Origin: a virus
Taxonomy: Duplodnaviria > Heunggongvirae > Uroviricota > Caudoviricetes
Virus record (IMG/VR): IMGVR_UViG_2602041669_000008
Length of the DNA stretch: 31,073 bases
Strand: one strand, 5' to 3'
This document shows positions 2,839-24,459 of this stretch, piece after piece. The notes beneath the pieces were generated by a model. It worked only from the letters and a program-made list of their open reading frames with translations, ran no database searches and was not told the origin of the DNA. Every line of letters begins with the position of its first letter. Positions within the stretch are counted from its first letter, which is position 1. A program made the position numbers and the translations under genes.

Positions 2839-3399
2839 TTAGTGCATGATGTTTGCCATCTCATAGGCGTCAGCCAGTAACTCCATCTCTGACTTTTTCA
2901 GCAAGGTGAATTCTTTCTTGCCTCCAACCACACCATCGGCATGAACAGGGACCAGCCAGGGGTATTTTTCTCTTACTTCAGCCGGTGCTGCATGCTGGTG
3001 GTGCCATCTACAAAGTGGCAACTGCTTTTTGTGACAACCCGGCGCGGTACGACCGGAGATATGGTGCAGAGACACCTCTTCAGATATTACTCCATGCATA
3101 TAGCAGGCAATGCAGGGGAGAGCGCCAAGAGCATTGGCTATACGCCGTTCCTCCGCCGTCGGTGTTCGTCCCTTCAAGCCACGAGATTTTATTTTTACCG
3201 CACTTTTCCGCGTTTTGCTGGCTGGTGGGCGCTCTTTCTGTTTAGCGATACGGCGGTCGATAGAATCCCGCATTTTCTGATATTGCGATTCTCTCCAGGC
3301 GGGGTCAGCCAACTTTTCCCGTTGCCGAGCGATCGCTCGTTCTCTGGCTGCCTTCTGCCACTCGCGGCGCTGTTCAAGTTTTTGTTCGATTGTTTTCAT
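2839..3399 (-). CDS. ref: Ref-type HNH nuclease (186 aa; basic disordered N-terminus, Cys/His HNH motifs)
   Basis: ATG 3397-3399 in frame with track ORF 2839-3477; motifs CIACYMHG...HHISGR...CHKK...CRWHHQH; length and position next to cre match P1 Ref. Confidence 0.75.
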   Translation of the reverse strand: MKTIEQKLEQRREWQKAARERAIARQREKLADPAWRESQYQKMRDSIDRRIAKQKERPPASKTRKSAVKIKSRGLKGRTPTAEERRIANALGALPCIACYMHGVISEEVSLHHISGRTAPGCHKKQLPLCRWHHQHAAPAEVREKYPWLVPVHADGVVGGKKEFTLLKKSEMELLADAYEMANIMH

Positions 3400-3404
3400 A
3401 TGGC

Positions 3405-3430
3405 AAAAAAAAGGCGGCCTAATGGCCGCC
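3405..3430 (-). terminator. Strong intrinsic terminator on the minus strand ending 6 nt before the ref ATG
   Basis: Plus strand reads A8-GGCGGCC-TAAT-GGCCGCC, so the minus-strand RNA is a perfect 7-bp stem followed by U8. Confidence 0.7.
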
Positions 3431-3490
3431 AATGATGTCAAGGAGTTAAGTAATGGCAACGTCTTCGTAGTTGACAAAAACTGCGGCTAA

Positions 3491-3514
3491 ATTATAGCAA
3501 TCAATTAGAGCAAT
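3491..3514 (-). promoter_or_regulatory. C1 operator-like site (ATTGCTCTAATTGATTG, 14/17) abutting a TATAAT -10 on the minus strand
   Basis: Direct read; -10 TATAAT is plus 3491-3496 reverse-complemented; operator 3498-3514. Confidence 0.55.
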
Positions 3515-3580
3515 GGTAGATATTTTATTTATCGCGAATCACATTTTTTCACTTCAGTACCTGTGTGCTATACTCCTTCT

Positions 3581-3650
3581 TGATTGATTGGATGCGGAAT
3601 ACAAACCCGCTCTTTTGTGCAGCCTGGCTCCTTGCCAGGCTTTTTTATTT
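3581..3650 (+). ncRNA. Candidate small RNA (about 70 nt): extended -10 promoter, 5' motif UGAUUGAUUGG, intrinsic terminator
   Basis: TGcTATACT at 3566-3574; motif at 3581-3591; stem GCCTGGC/GCCAGGC (3622-3640) followed by TTTTTTATTT; no plus-strand ORF. Confidence 0.35.
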
Positions 3651-3956
3651 CATCATGGAAGCTGTTAACGCTTTGGATCTTGCTGAACTGATTGAAAGGG
3701 CATTGTTTACCTTACCCAGGAGTTCGCCAAATTCCGCCATCACTCTAGTAAGCCCGCGCCGCGCTTCCTCCTCCGTTGCATTCATCACAAAATGTTCAGC
3801 ACTCCGCATGCTTTTAACGGGGAACGCAACAGATATCGAGTCGATATCAGGCATCCTATCGCTCAACTTTACGGTGACAATGACAGATGGTGACTGAATT
3901 TGAGAGCTTACAGACAGCACCACATATTTTCCGTCTATTTTGAAATCCTTCCGCAT
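3645..3956 (-). CDS. Hypothetical protein (103 aa) directly downstream of cre
   Basis: Track ORF with protein-like composition; GGTGA 4 nt upstream of the ATG; the overlapping plus-strand ORF 3565-3897 is less protein-like. Confidence 0.5.
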   Translation of the reverse strand: MRKDFKIDGKYVVLSVSSQIQSPSVIVTVKLSDRMPDIDSISVAFPVKSMRSAEHFVMNATEEEARRGLTRVMAEFGELLGKVNNALSISSARSKALTASMMK

Positions 3957-3972
3957 GTGTCACCATAAATAT

Positions 3973-3989
3973 CAAATAATTAGAGCAAT
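3973..3989 (-). promoter_or_regulatory. C1 operator-like site (ATTGCTCTAATTATTTG, 14/17) between the cre stop and the downstream ORF
   Basis: Direct read. Confidence 0.45.
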
Positions 3990-4006
3990 CAAGCGTAAAT
4001 AAACGG

Positions 4007-5038
4007 CTAGTTGCCATCTTCCAGCAGGCGCACCATTGCCCCCGTTTCACTATCCAGGTTACGAATGTAGTTCATGACAATATTTACGTTGGTCCAGCCA
4101 CCAGCTTGCATGATCTCCGGTATTGAAACTCCGGCGCGGGCCATATCTCGCGCGGCACCGACACGGGCACTATGTCCAGACCAGGCCAGGTATCGCTGAC
4201 CAGAGTCATCTTTTGCCCCGTAAATCAATCGGTGAGTTGCTTCAAAAATCCCTTCCAGGGCGCGAGTTGATAGCTGGCTGGTGGATGATGGCGCGGCAAC
4301 ACCATTTTTTCTGACGCGGCAAAACAGGTAGTTATTCGGATCATCAGCTACACCAGAGACAGAAATCCATCGCTCAACCAGTTTAGTTACCCCCAGGCTA
4401 AGTGCCTTCTCTACACCAGCGGTGCTAACCAGCGTTTTCGTTCTGCCAATATGGATTAACATTCTCCCACCGTCAGTACGTGAGATATCTTTAACCCTGA
4501 TCCTAGAAATTTCGGCTATACGTAACAGGGTGTTATAAGCAATCCCCAGAAATGCCAGATTACGTATATCCTGGCAGCGATCGCTATTTTCCATGAGTGA
4601 ACGAACCTGGTCGAAATCAGTGCGTTCGAACGCCAGCGCCTGTTTTGCACGCTCACCGGCATCAACGTTTTCTTTTCGGATCCGTCGCATGACCAGTGAA
4701 ACAGCATTGCTGTCACTTGGTCGTGGCAGCCCGGACCGACGATGAAGCATGTTTAGCTGGCCCAAATGTTGTTGGATAGTTTTTACTGCCAGACCACGCG
4801 CCTGAAGATATAGAAGGTAATCGCGAACATCTTCAGGTTCTGCGGGAAACCATTTCCGGTTATTCAACTTGCACCATGCCGCCCACGACCGGCAAACGGA
4901 CAGAAGCATTTTCCAGGTATGATCAGAAAACGCCTGGCGATCCCTGAACATGTCCATCAGGTTCTTGCGAACCTCATCACTCGTTGCATCGACCGGCAAT
5001 GCAGGCAAATTTTGGTGAACGGTTAACGAATTAGTCAT
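4007..5038 (-). CDS. cre: Cre site-specific tyrosine recombinase (343 aa)
   Basis: Translation is near-identical to canonical P1 Cre as I remember it; differences noticed: N-terminus MTNSL instead of MSNLL, E39D, two A-to-S changes, C-terminal D-to-N; loxP lies about 820 bp upstream. Confidence 0.97.
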   Translation of the reverse strand: MTNSLTVHQNLPALPVDATSDEVRKNLMDMFRDRQAFSDHTWKMLLSVCRSWAAWCKLNNRKWFPAEPEDVRDYLLYLQARGLAVKTIQQHLGQLNMLHRRSGLPRPSDSNAVSLVMRRIRKENVDAGERAKQALAFERTDFDQVRSLMENSDRCQDIRNLAFLGIAYNTLLRIAEISRIRVKDISRTDGGRMLIHIGRTKTLVSTAGVEKALSLGVTKLVERWISVSGVADDPNNYLFCRVRKNGVAAPSSTSQLSTRALEGIFEATHRLIYGAKDDSGQRYLAWSGHSARVGAARDMARAGVSIPEIMQAGGWTNVNIVMNYIRNLDSETGAMVRLLEDGN

Positions 5039-5430
5039 TTATTATGCGTGATTTTAACAGTTAAGCCTTGTTCATGAAGTATCTCATCAATAATTCGAAT
5101 CACATCCCCTGGTAGATCATCGTTCTCGAAATATCTGTGATCGGGGATTTCTACAGTGATTGGGGTTGCTGCTTTATGCAAAATCCGAACAATCTTTTTT
5201 TCTTTTTTGCATGTTGCATATTCAGCCTCTTCGATATCTATCCAGCTCGCACCATCAAATTGCTGGTAAACCCGAGTGTATAGTAAGCGATTTCGCTTTA
5301 CTTCTTCTGCTAACTCCCAAATTGCAACAGCCATAGCACGTTCATTTTCATTCGTTCCAGGGTTAGCAGCTTTTTGTTTTGCGTCGTTCAGTAAGGCGTT
5401 TACCTTGGCATCTGTCAGGCCATTAAACAT
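5035..5430 (-). CDS. Hypothetical protein (131 aa) translationally coupled to cre
   Basis: Track ORF; GGTGA 3 nt upstream of the ATG; stop TGA overlaps the cre ATG (ATGA); no family recognised. Confidence 0.6.
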   Translation of the reverse strand: MFNGLTDAKVNALLNDAKQKAANPGTNENERAMAVAIWELAEEVKRNRLLYTRVYQQFDGASWIDIEEAEYATCKKEKKIVRILHKAATPITVEIPDHRYFENDDLPGDVIRIIDEILHEQGLTVKITHNK

Positions 5431-5449: not shown

Positions 5450-5671
5450 TTAAATTATTGTTTTCAGCAGAGTGTACAGGATTGGCTCTGCCTTTACCTG
5501 GTTATGGTTCTCGTCATAGAAACGCCAGCGACCGCGCGTGCGTTCTATTTTCTCTTCACCGCGAGATAATGACAGTTGGTAACTATCACGCTCAAACCAT
5601 TTTGCCCGCCAGTAACCACGGTTTTTCTCAAGCTCAAGATGAGTGGACACTTTAGCAGCTGAATATCCCAT
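5450..5671 (-). CDS. Hypothetical basic protein (73 aa)
   Basis: Track ORF; GGTGA 3 nt upstream of the ATG, preceded by CCAATCAATCA; first gene of the unit ending in cre. Confidence 0.5.
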   Translation of the reverse strand: MGYSAAKVSTHLELEKNRGYWRAKWFERDSYQLSLSRGEEKIERTRGRWRFYDENHNQVKAEPILYTLLKTII

Positions 5672-5768
5672 TTTTCACCTCTGATTGATTGGTGGTGCTA
5701 AGTGCGCTACGCGAAATCTGGAGCACTAACACTGCCAACATTTCGCAGATTTTACGTAGCGCAACCTT

Positions 5769-8981: not shown

Positions 8982-9125
8982 AAAAAAAAGACGCGAGCGG
9001 CGTCTGTATCGCCTTAGACTTAAGCGGGAGGCCAATCCCGGCACCCGTTTTAATGAGGTGCCTGATAAGCATAAACCGAAAATGCCTCAAGGCGCAAGAG
9101 GTCAGGCTCAATGTAACATCGGTAG
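8982..9125 (-). ncRNA. Candidate c4-like structured leader/antisense RNA upstream of icd-like copy B
   Basis: Begins just below the operator at 9136-9152; hairpins GGCACC/GGUGCC and CGGGA/UCCCG; ends in stem AGACGC/GCGUCU plus U8 (8982-9005); no ORF. Confidence 0.35.
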
Positions 9126-11833: not shown

Positions 11834-11919
11834 TTATGCTTCCTTTCGTATAAAACTCTTTTTGACGCGAGGGTAACGAAAGTCACATGTCAAAAGGCCC
11901 GGAACGGGCAAGCAATCAA

Positions 11920-12372
11920 TCAGATACGTGCGGATGTGGCATTACCGTAATGACGGTGCTGACGGACCACCTTATTGAAAAGTTGACGCGCCATCACCCA
12001 AGGCTGGTGCTCCCGGCGTTCCTTTTCGTCCTGCGTCATATAGAGTTCGTTCTGGAGTTTTTCATCAAACCGGCGCGGAGCGCGGCTGCGGCGAAAGAAT
12101 TCAGGATTCAGAGAGTGGATCTGAAATCTACGTGGGCGTGTACTGTCATCAATCAAAACAGACGAATACTTAGACACAGCGATAGCCTTTAAGCGCAGAT
12201 AAACATCGCGCTTATCGACATCCAGATGCGGGTATTCCTTTTCAAGAATTGCTGCGAGATCTTTCGCTGATAGAAGAGATTTAGTGCGGATCATGTAATC
12301 CGCAATCTCGTACGATGTTATTCGTGAGTGATTTATTTCCATGAAGTGGCGTCCCTGCCAGTTAAGTAACAT
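11920..12372 (-). CDS. lpa: Putative late-promoter activator Lpa (150 aa)
   Basis: Track ORF; GGTGA 4 nt upstream of the ATG; directly upstream of pacA and behind a C1 operator, as for P1 gene 10; sequence itself not recognised. Confidence 0.55.
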   Translation of the reverse strand: MLLNWQGRHFMEINHSRITSYEIADYMIRTKSLLSAKDLAAILEKEYPHLDVDKRDVYLRLKAIAVSKYSSVLIDDSTRPRRFQIHSLNPEFFRRSRAPRRFDEKLQNELYMTQDEKERREHQPWVMARQLFNKVVRQHRHYGNATSARI

Positions 12373-22432: not shown

Positions 22433-22519
22433 TTACCCATGCGCGACGATGCCGCCAAAAGTGATAGAGAACAGCCAGAAATAGATCGAGGCCATAATGA
22501 TTTTGAATGCCGTGTTCAT
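22433..22519 (-). CDS. Candidate 28-aa hydrophobic peptide (type I toxin-like)
   Basis: MNTAFKIIMASIYFWLFSITFGGIVAHG; AGGAG 8 nt upstream of the ATG, preceded by CCAATCAATCA; stop is 9 nt before the next ATG. Confidence 0.3.
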   Translation of the reverse strand: MNTAFKIIMASIYFWLFSITFGGIVAHG

Positions 22520-22528
22520 ATTTTCAGC

Positions 22529-22578
22529 TCCTGTGATTGATTGGATACATGCCGCGCCTTACGGCATGTTTTTATTTT
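22529..22578 (+). ncRNA. Candidate antisense small RNA overlapping the RBS of the 28-aa peptide gene
   Basis: CATATT -10-like hexamer at 22517-22522; motif TGATTGATTGG at 22534-22544; stem CATGCCG/CGGCATG (22548-22568) followed by TTTTTATTTT; no plus-strand ORF. Confidence 0.3.
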
Positions 22579-23196: not shown

Positions 23197-24459
23197 TCAG
23201 CGAACGTAAATAGTGCCGCCGTTCTCTTTTTCCCATGCATCGCTACGTGCATAGCAAACATCGAGAAGTCTTCTTGCCGCAGTTTCCTCTAAACCCAATT
23301 CGACAACCAACTGCTCATGACGGCGGGTAACCACATCAAACAGGGTATGCAGCCCTTTAGTTGCCAGATCATCAATGAATTCCGGTTCGAACGGCAGCTC
23401 TGCATCTGCCAACATAACCTCTTGCGCCCACTCAACTCGACGGACCAATTCCGGGCGACGGCTTTCCATCTCTTTACAGATCAATTCATGGAAGAACTCT
23501 ACCCAACCTTCCGGCTGGAACTCGCGGAAAATTGCCAACGGCTGGAAGTTTGGCATCAACCATTCGTTGATTCGGATATCAATGGCATAGCCCATGTCGC
23601 AGCAGAACTGATAAGCAAAGTCCAGCTTAGAAACGATATAAGGACGCTCGTTATTGAACTCTTTAGGCGATGAGATCCCATAAGCCAGGAGGCGCGGGAA
23701 GAAGGAGATTTGCCCTAACGTCGGATGAAGTTTGCTTGCAGGGAAACGGCGCTCAGTAATGCCATACATTTCCTTCTTGAGCGTCGCAAATTTGGCATTC
23801 TCATTAACCAGCGCGGTAACCTCTGCTTTTTTATTAGCAAATGCCACGCGCGCCTCGCTTGCATCTTTAATAGTTTTTTTGAGCTGTTGGTTAAGGTCGG
23901 CGACCTGCTTACGCAGTTCCTGTCGCTCGCTTTTAGCTTTGTTATAGCGTTTCTCAAGGTTAAAAGGATCAAGTTTCATGATCTCTTTATATTGAGATTT
24001 TAGCGTTGAAATCTGTGAGTTCCGCAGTTCAACCATCGCGGTCATTTCATTGAGTTTTGTTTCCAGCTCAATGCTTATACGTTCGGCATTATCAGCACGC
24101 TGGTTGGCGTCATGCGTCGCATCGTCGATCGCGTCCTGTTGCTGGCGTTTCAAATGTTCAATTTCCAGCTGAAGCTCTTCAATTTCTTTACCCTTCAGAC
24201 CGAGATCCAACTGCATATTTTCAGCTGCATCTACCAGGGAGTTATGGCTATCAGCTTCTGCGTTATAAACATCAATAAGCTGTGCGTGAAGCATCTCCGC
24301 TGACTGAACCGCATTATCAAAAAAACGTGCTGTGAGGTCATCACAACTAACGCGGCGTTGCGCGGCCCGGATGTTCTGGATAATGGCCGGGATACCGGCA
24401 TTCAGGACATCAGGGATACATACATTTTCGATTGATTGGTTTTGTGCTGAAGTGCTCAT
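23197..24459 (-). CDS. Hypothetical protein (420 aa; coiled-coil N-terminal half)
   Basis: Track ORF; CCAATCAATC lies within the first 10 codons. Confidence 0.65.
   Translation of the reverse strand: MSTSAQNQSIENVCIPDVLNAGIPAIIQNIRAAQRRVSCDDLTARFFDNAVQSAEMLHAQLIDVYNAEADSHNSLVDAAENMQLDLGLKGKEIEELQLEIEHLKRQQQDAIDDATHDANQRADNAERISIELETKLNEMTAMVELRNSQISTLKSQYKEIMKLDPFNLEKRYNKAKSERQELRKQVADLNQQLKKTIKDASEARVAFANKKAEVTALVNENAKFATLKKEMYGITERRFPASKLHPTLGQISFFPRLLAYGISSPKEFNNERPYIVSKLDFAYQFCCDMGYAIDIRINEWLMPNFQPLAIFREFQPEGWVEFFHELICKEMESRRPELVRRVEWAQEVMLADAELPFEPEFIDDLATKGLHTLFDVVTRRHEQLVVELGLEETAARRLLDVCYARSDAWEKENGGTIYVR

Follow-up and report, generated by a model that had tools for sequence, protein, structure and literature searches.

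P1 is one of the most closely studied phages and is the source of Cre-lox, yet the only regulatory RNA known in it is C4, the antisense RNA of the P1/P7 immI region (Rfam RF01695), which is processed from the leader of the operon it controls and pairs through loop sequences. In architecture, the closest relatives of the element described here are Hfq-type trans-acting enterobacterial sRNAs with a 5′-terminal seed, of which RybB, OmrA/B and MicC are likely examples. Here, we analyzed a 31,073-nucleotide stretch of DNA (IMG/VR record IMGVR_UViG_2602041669_000008; hereafter, the window), a P1-family phage-plasmid read in reverse to the standard P1 map, and found between c8 and ref what looks like a conserved, unannotated gene for a regulatory RNA of about 66 nt. 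Its first ten bases are complementary to a box kept next to the start codons of several phage genes, including the operon that makes Cre recombinase. This reading is supported by sequence comparison only, as no transcript, 5′ or 3′ end or Hfq association has been shown, and we place its probability at roughly 0.7.

A candidate small RNA gene in the c8–ref spacer

Bases 3000-4200 of the window match P1, P7, RCS47 and others at 92-98% identity. On the minus strand, the local order is cra (5450..5671), a 131-aa ORF (5035..5430; phrog_20152, unknown function), cre (4007..5038), c8 (3645..3956), ref (ATG near 3402) and mat. The 131-aa ORF is inserted between cra and cre, which are only 7 nt apart in P1 and RCS47. 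The richly annotated P1 record AF234172 marks P2ref, the C1 operator Oref and P1ref closer to ref, and annotates nothing between the c8 stop and P2ref on either strand. The first-pass annotation had proposed a plus-strand transcript of ~70 nt in this spacer, with an extended -10, an 11-mer at its predicted 5′ end and an intrinsic terminator, and had suggested that the 11-mer could pair with sequences upstream of minus-strand genes. Every feature was confirmed at the position given there, and the interpretation is supported by the comparisons below, with refinements to the start, the seed and the set of boxes. The predicted parts are as follows.

3546..3551, plus strand: weak -35-like hexamer TTTTCA, 17 bp upstream of the -10 and probably dispensable
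3566..3574, plus strand: extended -10 promoter TGcTATACT
3575..3581, plus strand: variable stretch between the -10 and the start (CCTTCT + T)
3582..3648, plus strand: predicted sRNA of about 66 nt, with the 5′ end inferred at G3582 and the 3′ end within the U-tract
3582..3591, plus strand: seed GAUUGAUUGG, contained in the 11-mer TGATTGATTGG at 3581-3591
3590..3613, plus strand: stem-loop 1, with core pairs 3594-3597 with 3607-3610
3621..3641, plus strand: terminator hairpin AGCCTGGC/GCCAGGCT (as RNA, AGCCUGGC-UCCUU-GCCAGGCU), 8 pairs, 6 of them G-C
3642..3650, plus strand: U-tail TTTTTATTT, overlapping the TAA stop codon of the minus-strand c8 gene (3645-3647)
5682..5692, minus strand: target box CCAATCAATCA in the leader of cra, the first gene of the cra-cre-c8 operon, 10 nt before the ATG at 5671 and abutting the Shine-Dalgarno (SD) sequence GAGGTG
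22534..22544, minus strand: target box in the leader of a 28-aa hydrophobic ORF (22433..22519, ATG at 22519)
24430..24439, minus strand: target box CCAATCAATC inside pmgS, in codons 7-10 (ATG at 24459)

We first asked whether such an arrangement could arise by chance. An extended -10 followed 30-100 nt later by a strong terminator occurs twice in the window, against 0.025 per dinucleotide-preserving shuffle, making such a unit about 40-80 times rarer in shuffled sequence. The other unit lies back to back with the sRNA promoter (3499-3405, minus strand) and is the known P2ref-to-ref-attenuator unit, in which P2ref has a perfect extended -10 (TGcTATAAT) next to Oref, and the hairpin GGCGGCC/GGCCGCC with a run of eight T follows about 60 nt downstream, immediately before the ref ATG. 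This is the attenuator named in the title of Windle et al. 1988 (cited in PMC4713147). Its operator, promoter and terminator are retained in plasmids where ref is replaced by a convergent KilAC antirepressor gene (pC21-4 and an E. albertii plasmid), and the leader RNA of roughly 75 nt may therefore have a function of its own. No protein gene is plausible on the plus strand at the candidate locus, because the only ORFs there (3565..3897 and 3584..3691) run through the terminator, its T-run varies from 5 to 9 T among relatives, and the frame is not kept in relatives.

Conservation of the promoter, seed and terminator

Among 69 distinct sequences from P1-like viral contigs, nucleotide diversity was 0.0107 over 3564-3650, compared with 0.164 at c8 third codon positions (about 15 times higher), 0.159 in the c8-cre spacer and 0.09-0.13 between Oref and the -35 region. 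The 11-mer scored 0.0026 and the hairpin 0.0041, whereas positions 3575-3580 reached 0.043. The extended -10 was invariant in 54 distinct P1-type sequences, while the six bases after it varied (CTTTCT, CGTTCT, CCTTTC and CCCTTC). Read on the minus strand, these six bases form an SD-like AAGGAG following this copy of the box; this sequence is destroyed in several lineages and no ORF follows it, indicating that it is not under selection. The pattern is that of a promoter, a variable spacer and a conserved transcript start rather than of a ribosome-binding site. In one IMG/VR contig (2778261696_000004), an apparent module boundary 7 nt upstream of the TG of the extended -10 (equivalent to window ~3559) proved to be an inserted Tn21/Tn3-family terminal inverted repeat, which removes the -35 region but leaves the rest of the element intact.

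A tblastn search with C8 identified a Salmonella arizonae plasmid whose C8 is only 50% identical. Just downstream of its c8-like operon, on the convergent strand, it reads aTGaTGTGATATACT-cattcg-CGATTGATTGG-tttgcatggagagatccttgcatccatagtgc-AGCCCGGCgaaaGCTGGGCT-TTTTCTTTT. Further classes were found in other Salmonella plasmids, in Cronobacter phage JK004 and in an IMG/VR contig. These share TGnTATACT, six variable bases, one T or C and GATTGATTGG, followed by a hairpin whose 5′ arm begins at the final GG but whose sequence differs by class, then (U)GUGC and a terminator AGCCYGGC/GCYRGGCU with a T-run. The -35-like hexamer is not conserved in the Salmonella or Cronobacter relatives. In the relatives whose gene context was examined (the Salmonella plasmids and JK004), the unit lies convergent to the c8-like operon and C8 is about 50% identical to that of the window. 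A scan of viral contigs for elements with a changed seed, using the pattern TGTGNTATACT...GTGCAGCC, added nothing new.

On an alignment of 18 variants, RNAalifold recovered both helices. For the structure that we specified, 96.2% of cells were paired and four pairs changed on both sides, and none of 500 shuffles reached the observed covariation score or the percentage paired. All cells of the terminator were paired; U-A becomes C-G in the distant classes and G-C becomes G·U, and one P1-type variant has C-G changed to U·G. These wobble pairs would be A·C mismatches on the other strand. In stem-loop 1, the sequence differs between classes but a hairpin persists at the same place, and three of the four core pairs show changes on both sides, although single changes break a pair in a few P1-type variants. 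A covariance model built from this alignment found exactly one strong copy per genome (95 bits in the window, 98 in P1, 67 in JK004 and 54 in the Salmonella plasmid). Since these sequences were also used to build the model, they match by construction, and the informative result is that no second strong copy appears.

The base after the six-base spacer is T in P1-type sequences and C in the others, whereas the 10-mer is invariant in all four classes apart from one E. albertii variant ending in U. G3582 is the first purine, 8 nt after the -10. We therefore infer that transcription most likely starts there and that the functional seed is the 10-mer rather than the 11-mer. The predicted RNA folds with a free 5′ end, two hairpins and a U-tail (-23.2 kcal/mol, z = -3.0), and bases 1-8 are unpaired in both the minimum-energy and consensus folds. 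Before the terminator hairpin, P1-type sequences have UCUUUUGUGC, and the Salmonella and Cronobacter classes have AUAGUGC or AUGUGUGC.

The element is present in 617 of 5426 complete E. coli genomes, almost always on plasmids, and in 699 PLSDB plasmids from Escherichia, Salmonella, Klebsiella, Shigella and Cronobacter. In RefSeq E. coli genomes, the only annotation listed under the match is the end of the c8 "hypothetical protein", and no RNA gene is shown. None of the papers that we could read describes this RNA or motif, and the P1 transcriptome studies among them quantify annotated genes only.

Complementary boxes at translation-start regions

The exact 11-mer occurs three times in the window, at 3581, 5682 and 22534, always on the plus strand. 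On the minus strand, the copies at 5682 and 22534 lie directly 5′ of the SD sequences of cra and of the 28-aa ORF. The complement of the 10-mer seed, CCAAUCAAUC, occurs 4–6 times per genome on the mRNA-sense strand. As CCAATCAATC, it was found 4 times in P1, 4 times (plus one UCAAUCAAUC) in the Salmonella plasmid and 6 times in JK004, against about 0.09 expected per strand (about 0.08 for one strand of the 88-kb P1 genome), whereas the opposite strand of P1 holds only one exact copy. One copy per genome is the sRNA gene itself. The others lie 0 to 16 nt before a start codon or in codons 7-10, at orthologous translation-start regions in three lineages.

The first of these precedes the first gene after loxP, which is cra in the window and another ORF in the relatives (box at 10-16 nt). 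The cra box is invariant in about 70 relatives. The second is in the leader of a small hydrophobic ORF (MNTAFKIIMASIYFWLFSITFGGIVAHG, 28 aa, with a strong SD sequence) that lies between C1 operator Op88 (22618-22602) and pmgT, just after the predicted PpmgT promoters; it is unannotated in P1, where the record predicts only promoters, and homologs of 46-53 aa occur in the Salmonella plasmid and JK004. The third, not noted previously, is inside pmgS, where the codons CAA TCA ATC and the preceding C are kept in P1, the Salmonella plasmid and JK004 although the flanking residues differ. The Salmonella plasmid and JK004 carry a further box at a second small membrane ORF behind a C1-operator-like site. 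In JK004, a 185-aa protein, judged Ref-like by eye, is preceded by a terminator-like hairpin with a run of eight T and then by the box GCCAATCAATC directly touching the ATG (record position 42392-42401), whereas P1-type ref has only GCCATATG at that place, which looks like a shortened remnant of the box. A seed-like UGAUUGAUUGC that begins at the lpa stop codon (11912-11922, minus-strand sense) and is followed by the hairpin GCCCG/CGGGC and CUUUUG gives the 3′ end of lpa mRNA nine bases of the seed. It is present in P1, similar in the Salmonella plasmid (CAUUGAUUGG) and absent in JK004, and is probably coincidental.

Bases flanking the box co-vary with sRNA nucleotides 11–13. Nucleotide 11 is C in JK004, and all five targets have G before the box. 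It is U (followed by UU) in the Salmonella plasmid, and the four orthologous targets have A there, three of them with A/G-rich flanks that give 13 contiguous pairs. In the P1 type it is A, and only the small-ORF leader has U. The cognate sRNA gave the best duplex for 10 of 12 targets. However, in the P1 lineage the cra and pmgS boxes pair over only 10 bp and a non-cognate sRNA would pair better, and the E. albertii seed variant (G10 to U) is not compensated at its cra box. Duplex energy alone does not single out the targets either. The small-ORF leader gives the best predicted duplex in the window (15 contiguous pairs, -22.4 kcal/mol, z = -4.6), but cra ties with an unrelated start region at -17.8 kcal/mol and pmgS reaches only z = -2.1. 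The pmgS box (+19 to +28) also lies at the edge of the region where pairing usually blocks initiation.

The terminator-like hairpin beside the copy at 22534 does not represent a second, cis-antisense sRNA opposite the 28-aa ORF. It scored only 21 bits with the covariance model (E = 0.09), the promoter scan found no sigma-70 promoter on that strand, and by inspection no T-run follows it in the Salmonella plasmid or JK004. It is a sense-strand 5′-UTR feature.

Proposed mechanism and alternative explanations

We propose that this is a stand-alone gene for a trans-acting, base-pairing small RNA of P1-family phage-plasmids. In this model, RNA polymerase starts from the extended -10 promoter and stops at the terminator overlapping the c8 stop codon, and the seed of the resulting RNA pairs with the box in the cra leader (and so the cra-cre-c8 operon), in the leader of the small membrane ORF heading the C1-controlled Op88/pmgT operon, and in pmgS. 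Relatives add a second small membrane ORF behind a C1 operator, and ref. Pairing next to or over the ribosome-binding site most likely blocks 30S binding and lowers translation, possibly with the help of Hfq given the U-rich linker and the U-tail. The promoter is not overlapped by a C1 operator, Oref (3498-3514) being 31 bp upstream of the -35-like hexamer, and the RNA is therefore probably made in the lysogen, adding a post-transcriptional damper on leaky expression of these genes. It does not appear to be a late (Lpa-dependent) promoter. The region shares ACTTCAGT with LPmat, but the annotated LPmat reads AAGTGACTT-CAGT-CAGAAT, whereas the 9-mer at the -22 box position before TATACT is AGTACCTGT. 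If the RNA is real, it would add a conserved sRNA and a small regulon to the textbook C1/C4/Lxc immunity scheme and would point to post-transcriptional control of the cra-cre operon. A more far-reaching version, in which the RNA is a constitutive master post-transcriptional repressor of the Cre operon, two C1-controlled small membrane (possibly toxic) peptides, pmgS and, in some lineages, ref, and is needed for stable lysogeny or correct timing after induction, is not excluded but remains speculative and less likely than not.

An unlikely alternative, though the best of those considered, is that the box is a sense-strand mRNA signal read by something other than this RNA, such as a translational enhancer, a standby site, or the site of a phage or host RNA-binding protein or RNase, with the copy at 3582-3591 being one more (decayed) sense copy and the plus-strand promoter and terminator incidental. 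The copies are on the mRNA-sense strand and close to start codons, several follow a 5′ hairpin at a short distance, and the self copy is followed by the SD-like AAGGAG. Concerted change of the flanking base in all copies, including this one, would also arise if one sequence-specific factor read them, and the co-variation thus does not by itself exclude this alternative. It is weakened instead by the loss of the SD-like sequence and the lack of any gene behind the self copy in P1, by the retention of AGTATANCACA, the complement of the extended -10, at a fixed distance in four classes, and by the G·U pairs in the terminator and stem-loop 1 that work only on the plus strand. The range of box positions, from abutting the ATG, through 16 nt upstream, to codons 7-10, is typical of sRNA target sites and is hard to reconcile with a fixed-position enhancer.

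It is also improbable, on present evidence, that the transcript is real but works mainly in cis, the boxes elsewhere being unrelated to it. The RNA is fully complementary to c8 transcripts that read through towards ref, and could trigger processing of that RNA or block read-through by transcriptional interference. Consistent with this, the hairpin has no U-tract after it on the minus strand, so c8 transcripts probably continue into the ref leader, the gene is convergent to the c8-like operon in the Salmonella and JK004 relatives examined, and the neighboring ref leader is known to be under attenuator control. However, a cis role does not explain why the 10-mer at the very 5′ end is the most conserved part, nor why its complement is enriched 40- to 70-fold at start regions of orthologous genes with lineage-matched flanks. 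The two roles are not mutually exclusive.

A DNA site for a phage or host protein with no RNA product is the least likely, because, although the sequence is short, exactly repeated and in two cases within about 100 bp of a C1 operator (Oref and Op88), it does not match by inspection the C1 operator (ATTGCTCTAATAAATTT type), the late-promoter -22 box or an IHF site, is not palindromic, has the same orientation relative to transcription in every copy, lies at variable distances from promoters but short distances from start codons, and in one copy is inside a coding region with preserved codons.

Comparison with known systems

In a search against Rfam 15, no family reached its gathering threshold at this locus. 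The best hits were SorX (19.5 bits, threshold 46.6) and Hrs12 (19.7 bits, threshold 70), both of which align only the terminator. The C4 model matched elsewhere in the window, in two separate modules on the minus strand. One comprises C4 (8871-8958, 75.9 bits) and an isrK-family element (8984-9061) between c1 and pacB; the other (1271-1477) comprises C4 (1271-1356, 72.1 bits), a c4-a1b1 element (RF03163) and a 73-aa ORF, probably icd, directly beyond mat, at a position occupied by the res/mod genes in P1. Nothing at 3480-3720 matched the C4 model, even at E-values up to 10.

Compared with the 5′-seed Hfq-type sRNAs, the candidate has its own predicted promoter, a similar length of about 70 nt, an unpaired conserved seed at the extreme 5′ end, a Rho-independent terminator with a U-tail, and short (10-15 bp) complementarity to translation-initiation regions of several mRNAs, but it is encoded on a phage-plasmid and the targets seen so far are the phage's own genes. 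Antitoxin RNAs of type I toxin-antitoxin systems are comparable in that two of the conserved targets are small hydrophobic membrane ORFs with predicted pairing at their ribosome-binding sites. However, the RNA is not encoded opposite or beside those ORFs, the 28-aa ORF lying 19 kb away, and its predicted targets include ordinary genes (cra-cre, pmgS and, in JK004, ref). Like IsrK, DicF and other prophage-encoded sRNAs, it is horizontally carried, has a terminator and is embedded among phage regulatory genes, but it has no homology to them, and its predicted regulon is phage-internal and conserved across P1-like elements of Escherichia, Salmonella and Cronobacter. Conceptually, it resembles P1's own C4 RNA, as a small RNA of the same phage family that would repress translation of phage genes by short pairing near a ribosome-binding site. 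It differs from C4 in having its own promoter and terminator, a 5′-end seed and dispersed targets, and the box has the same sense as C4's pairing loop, not its complement.
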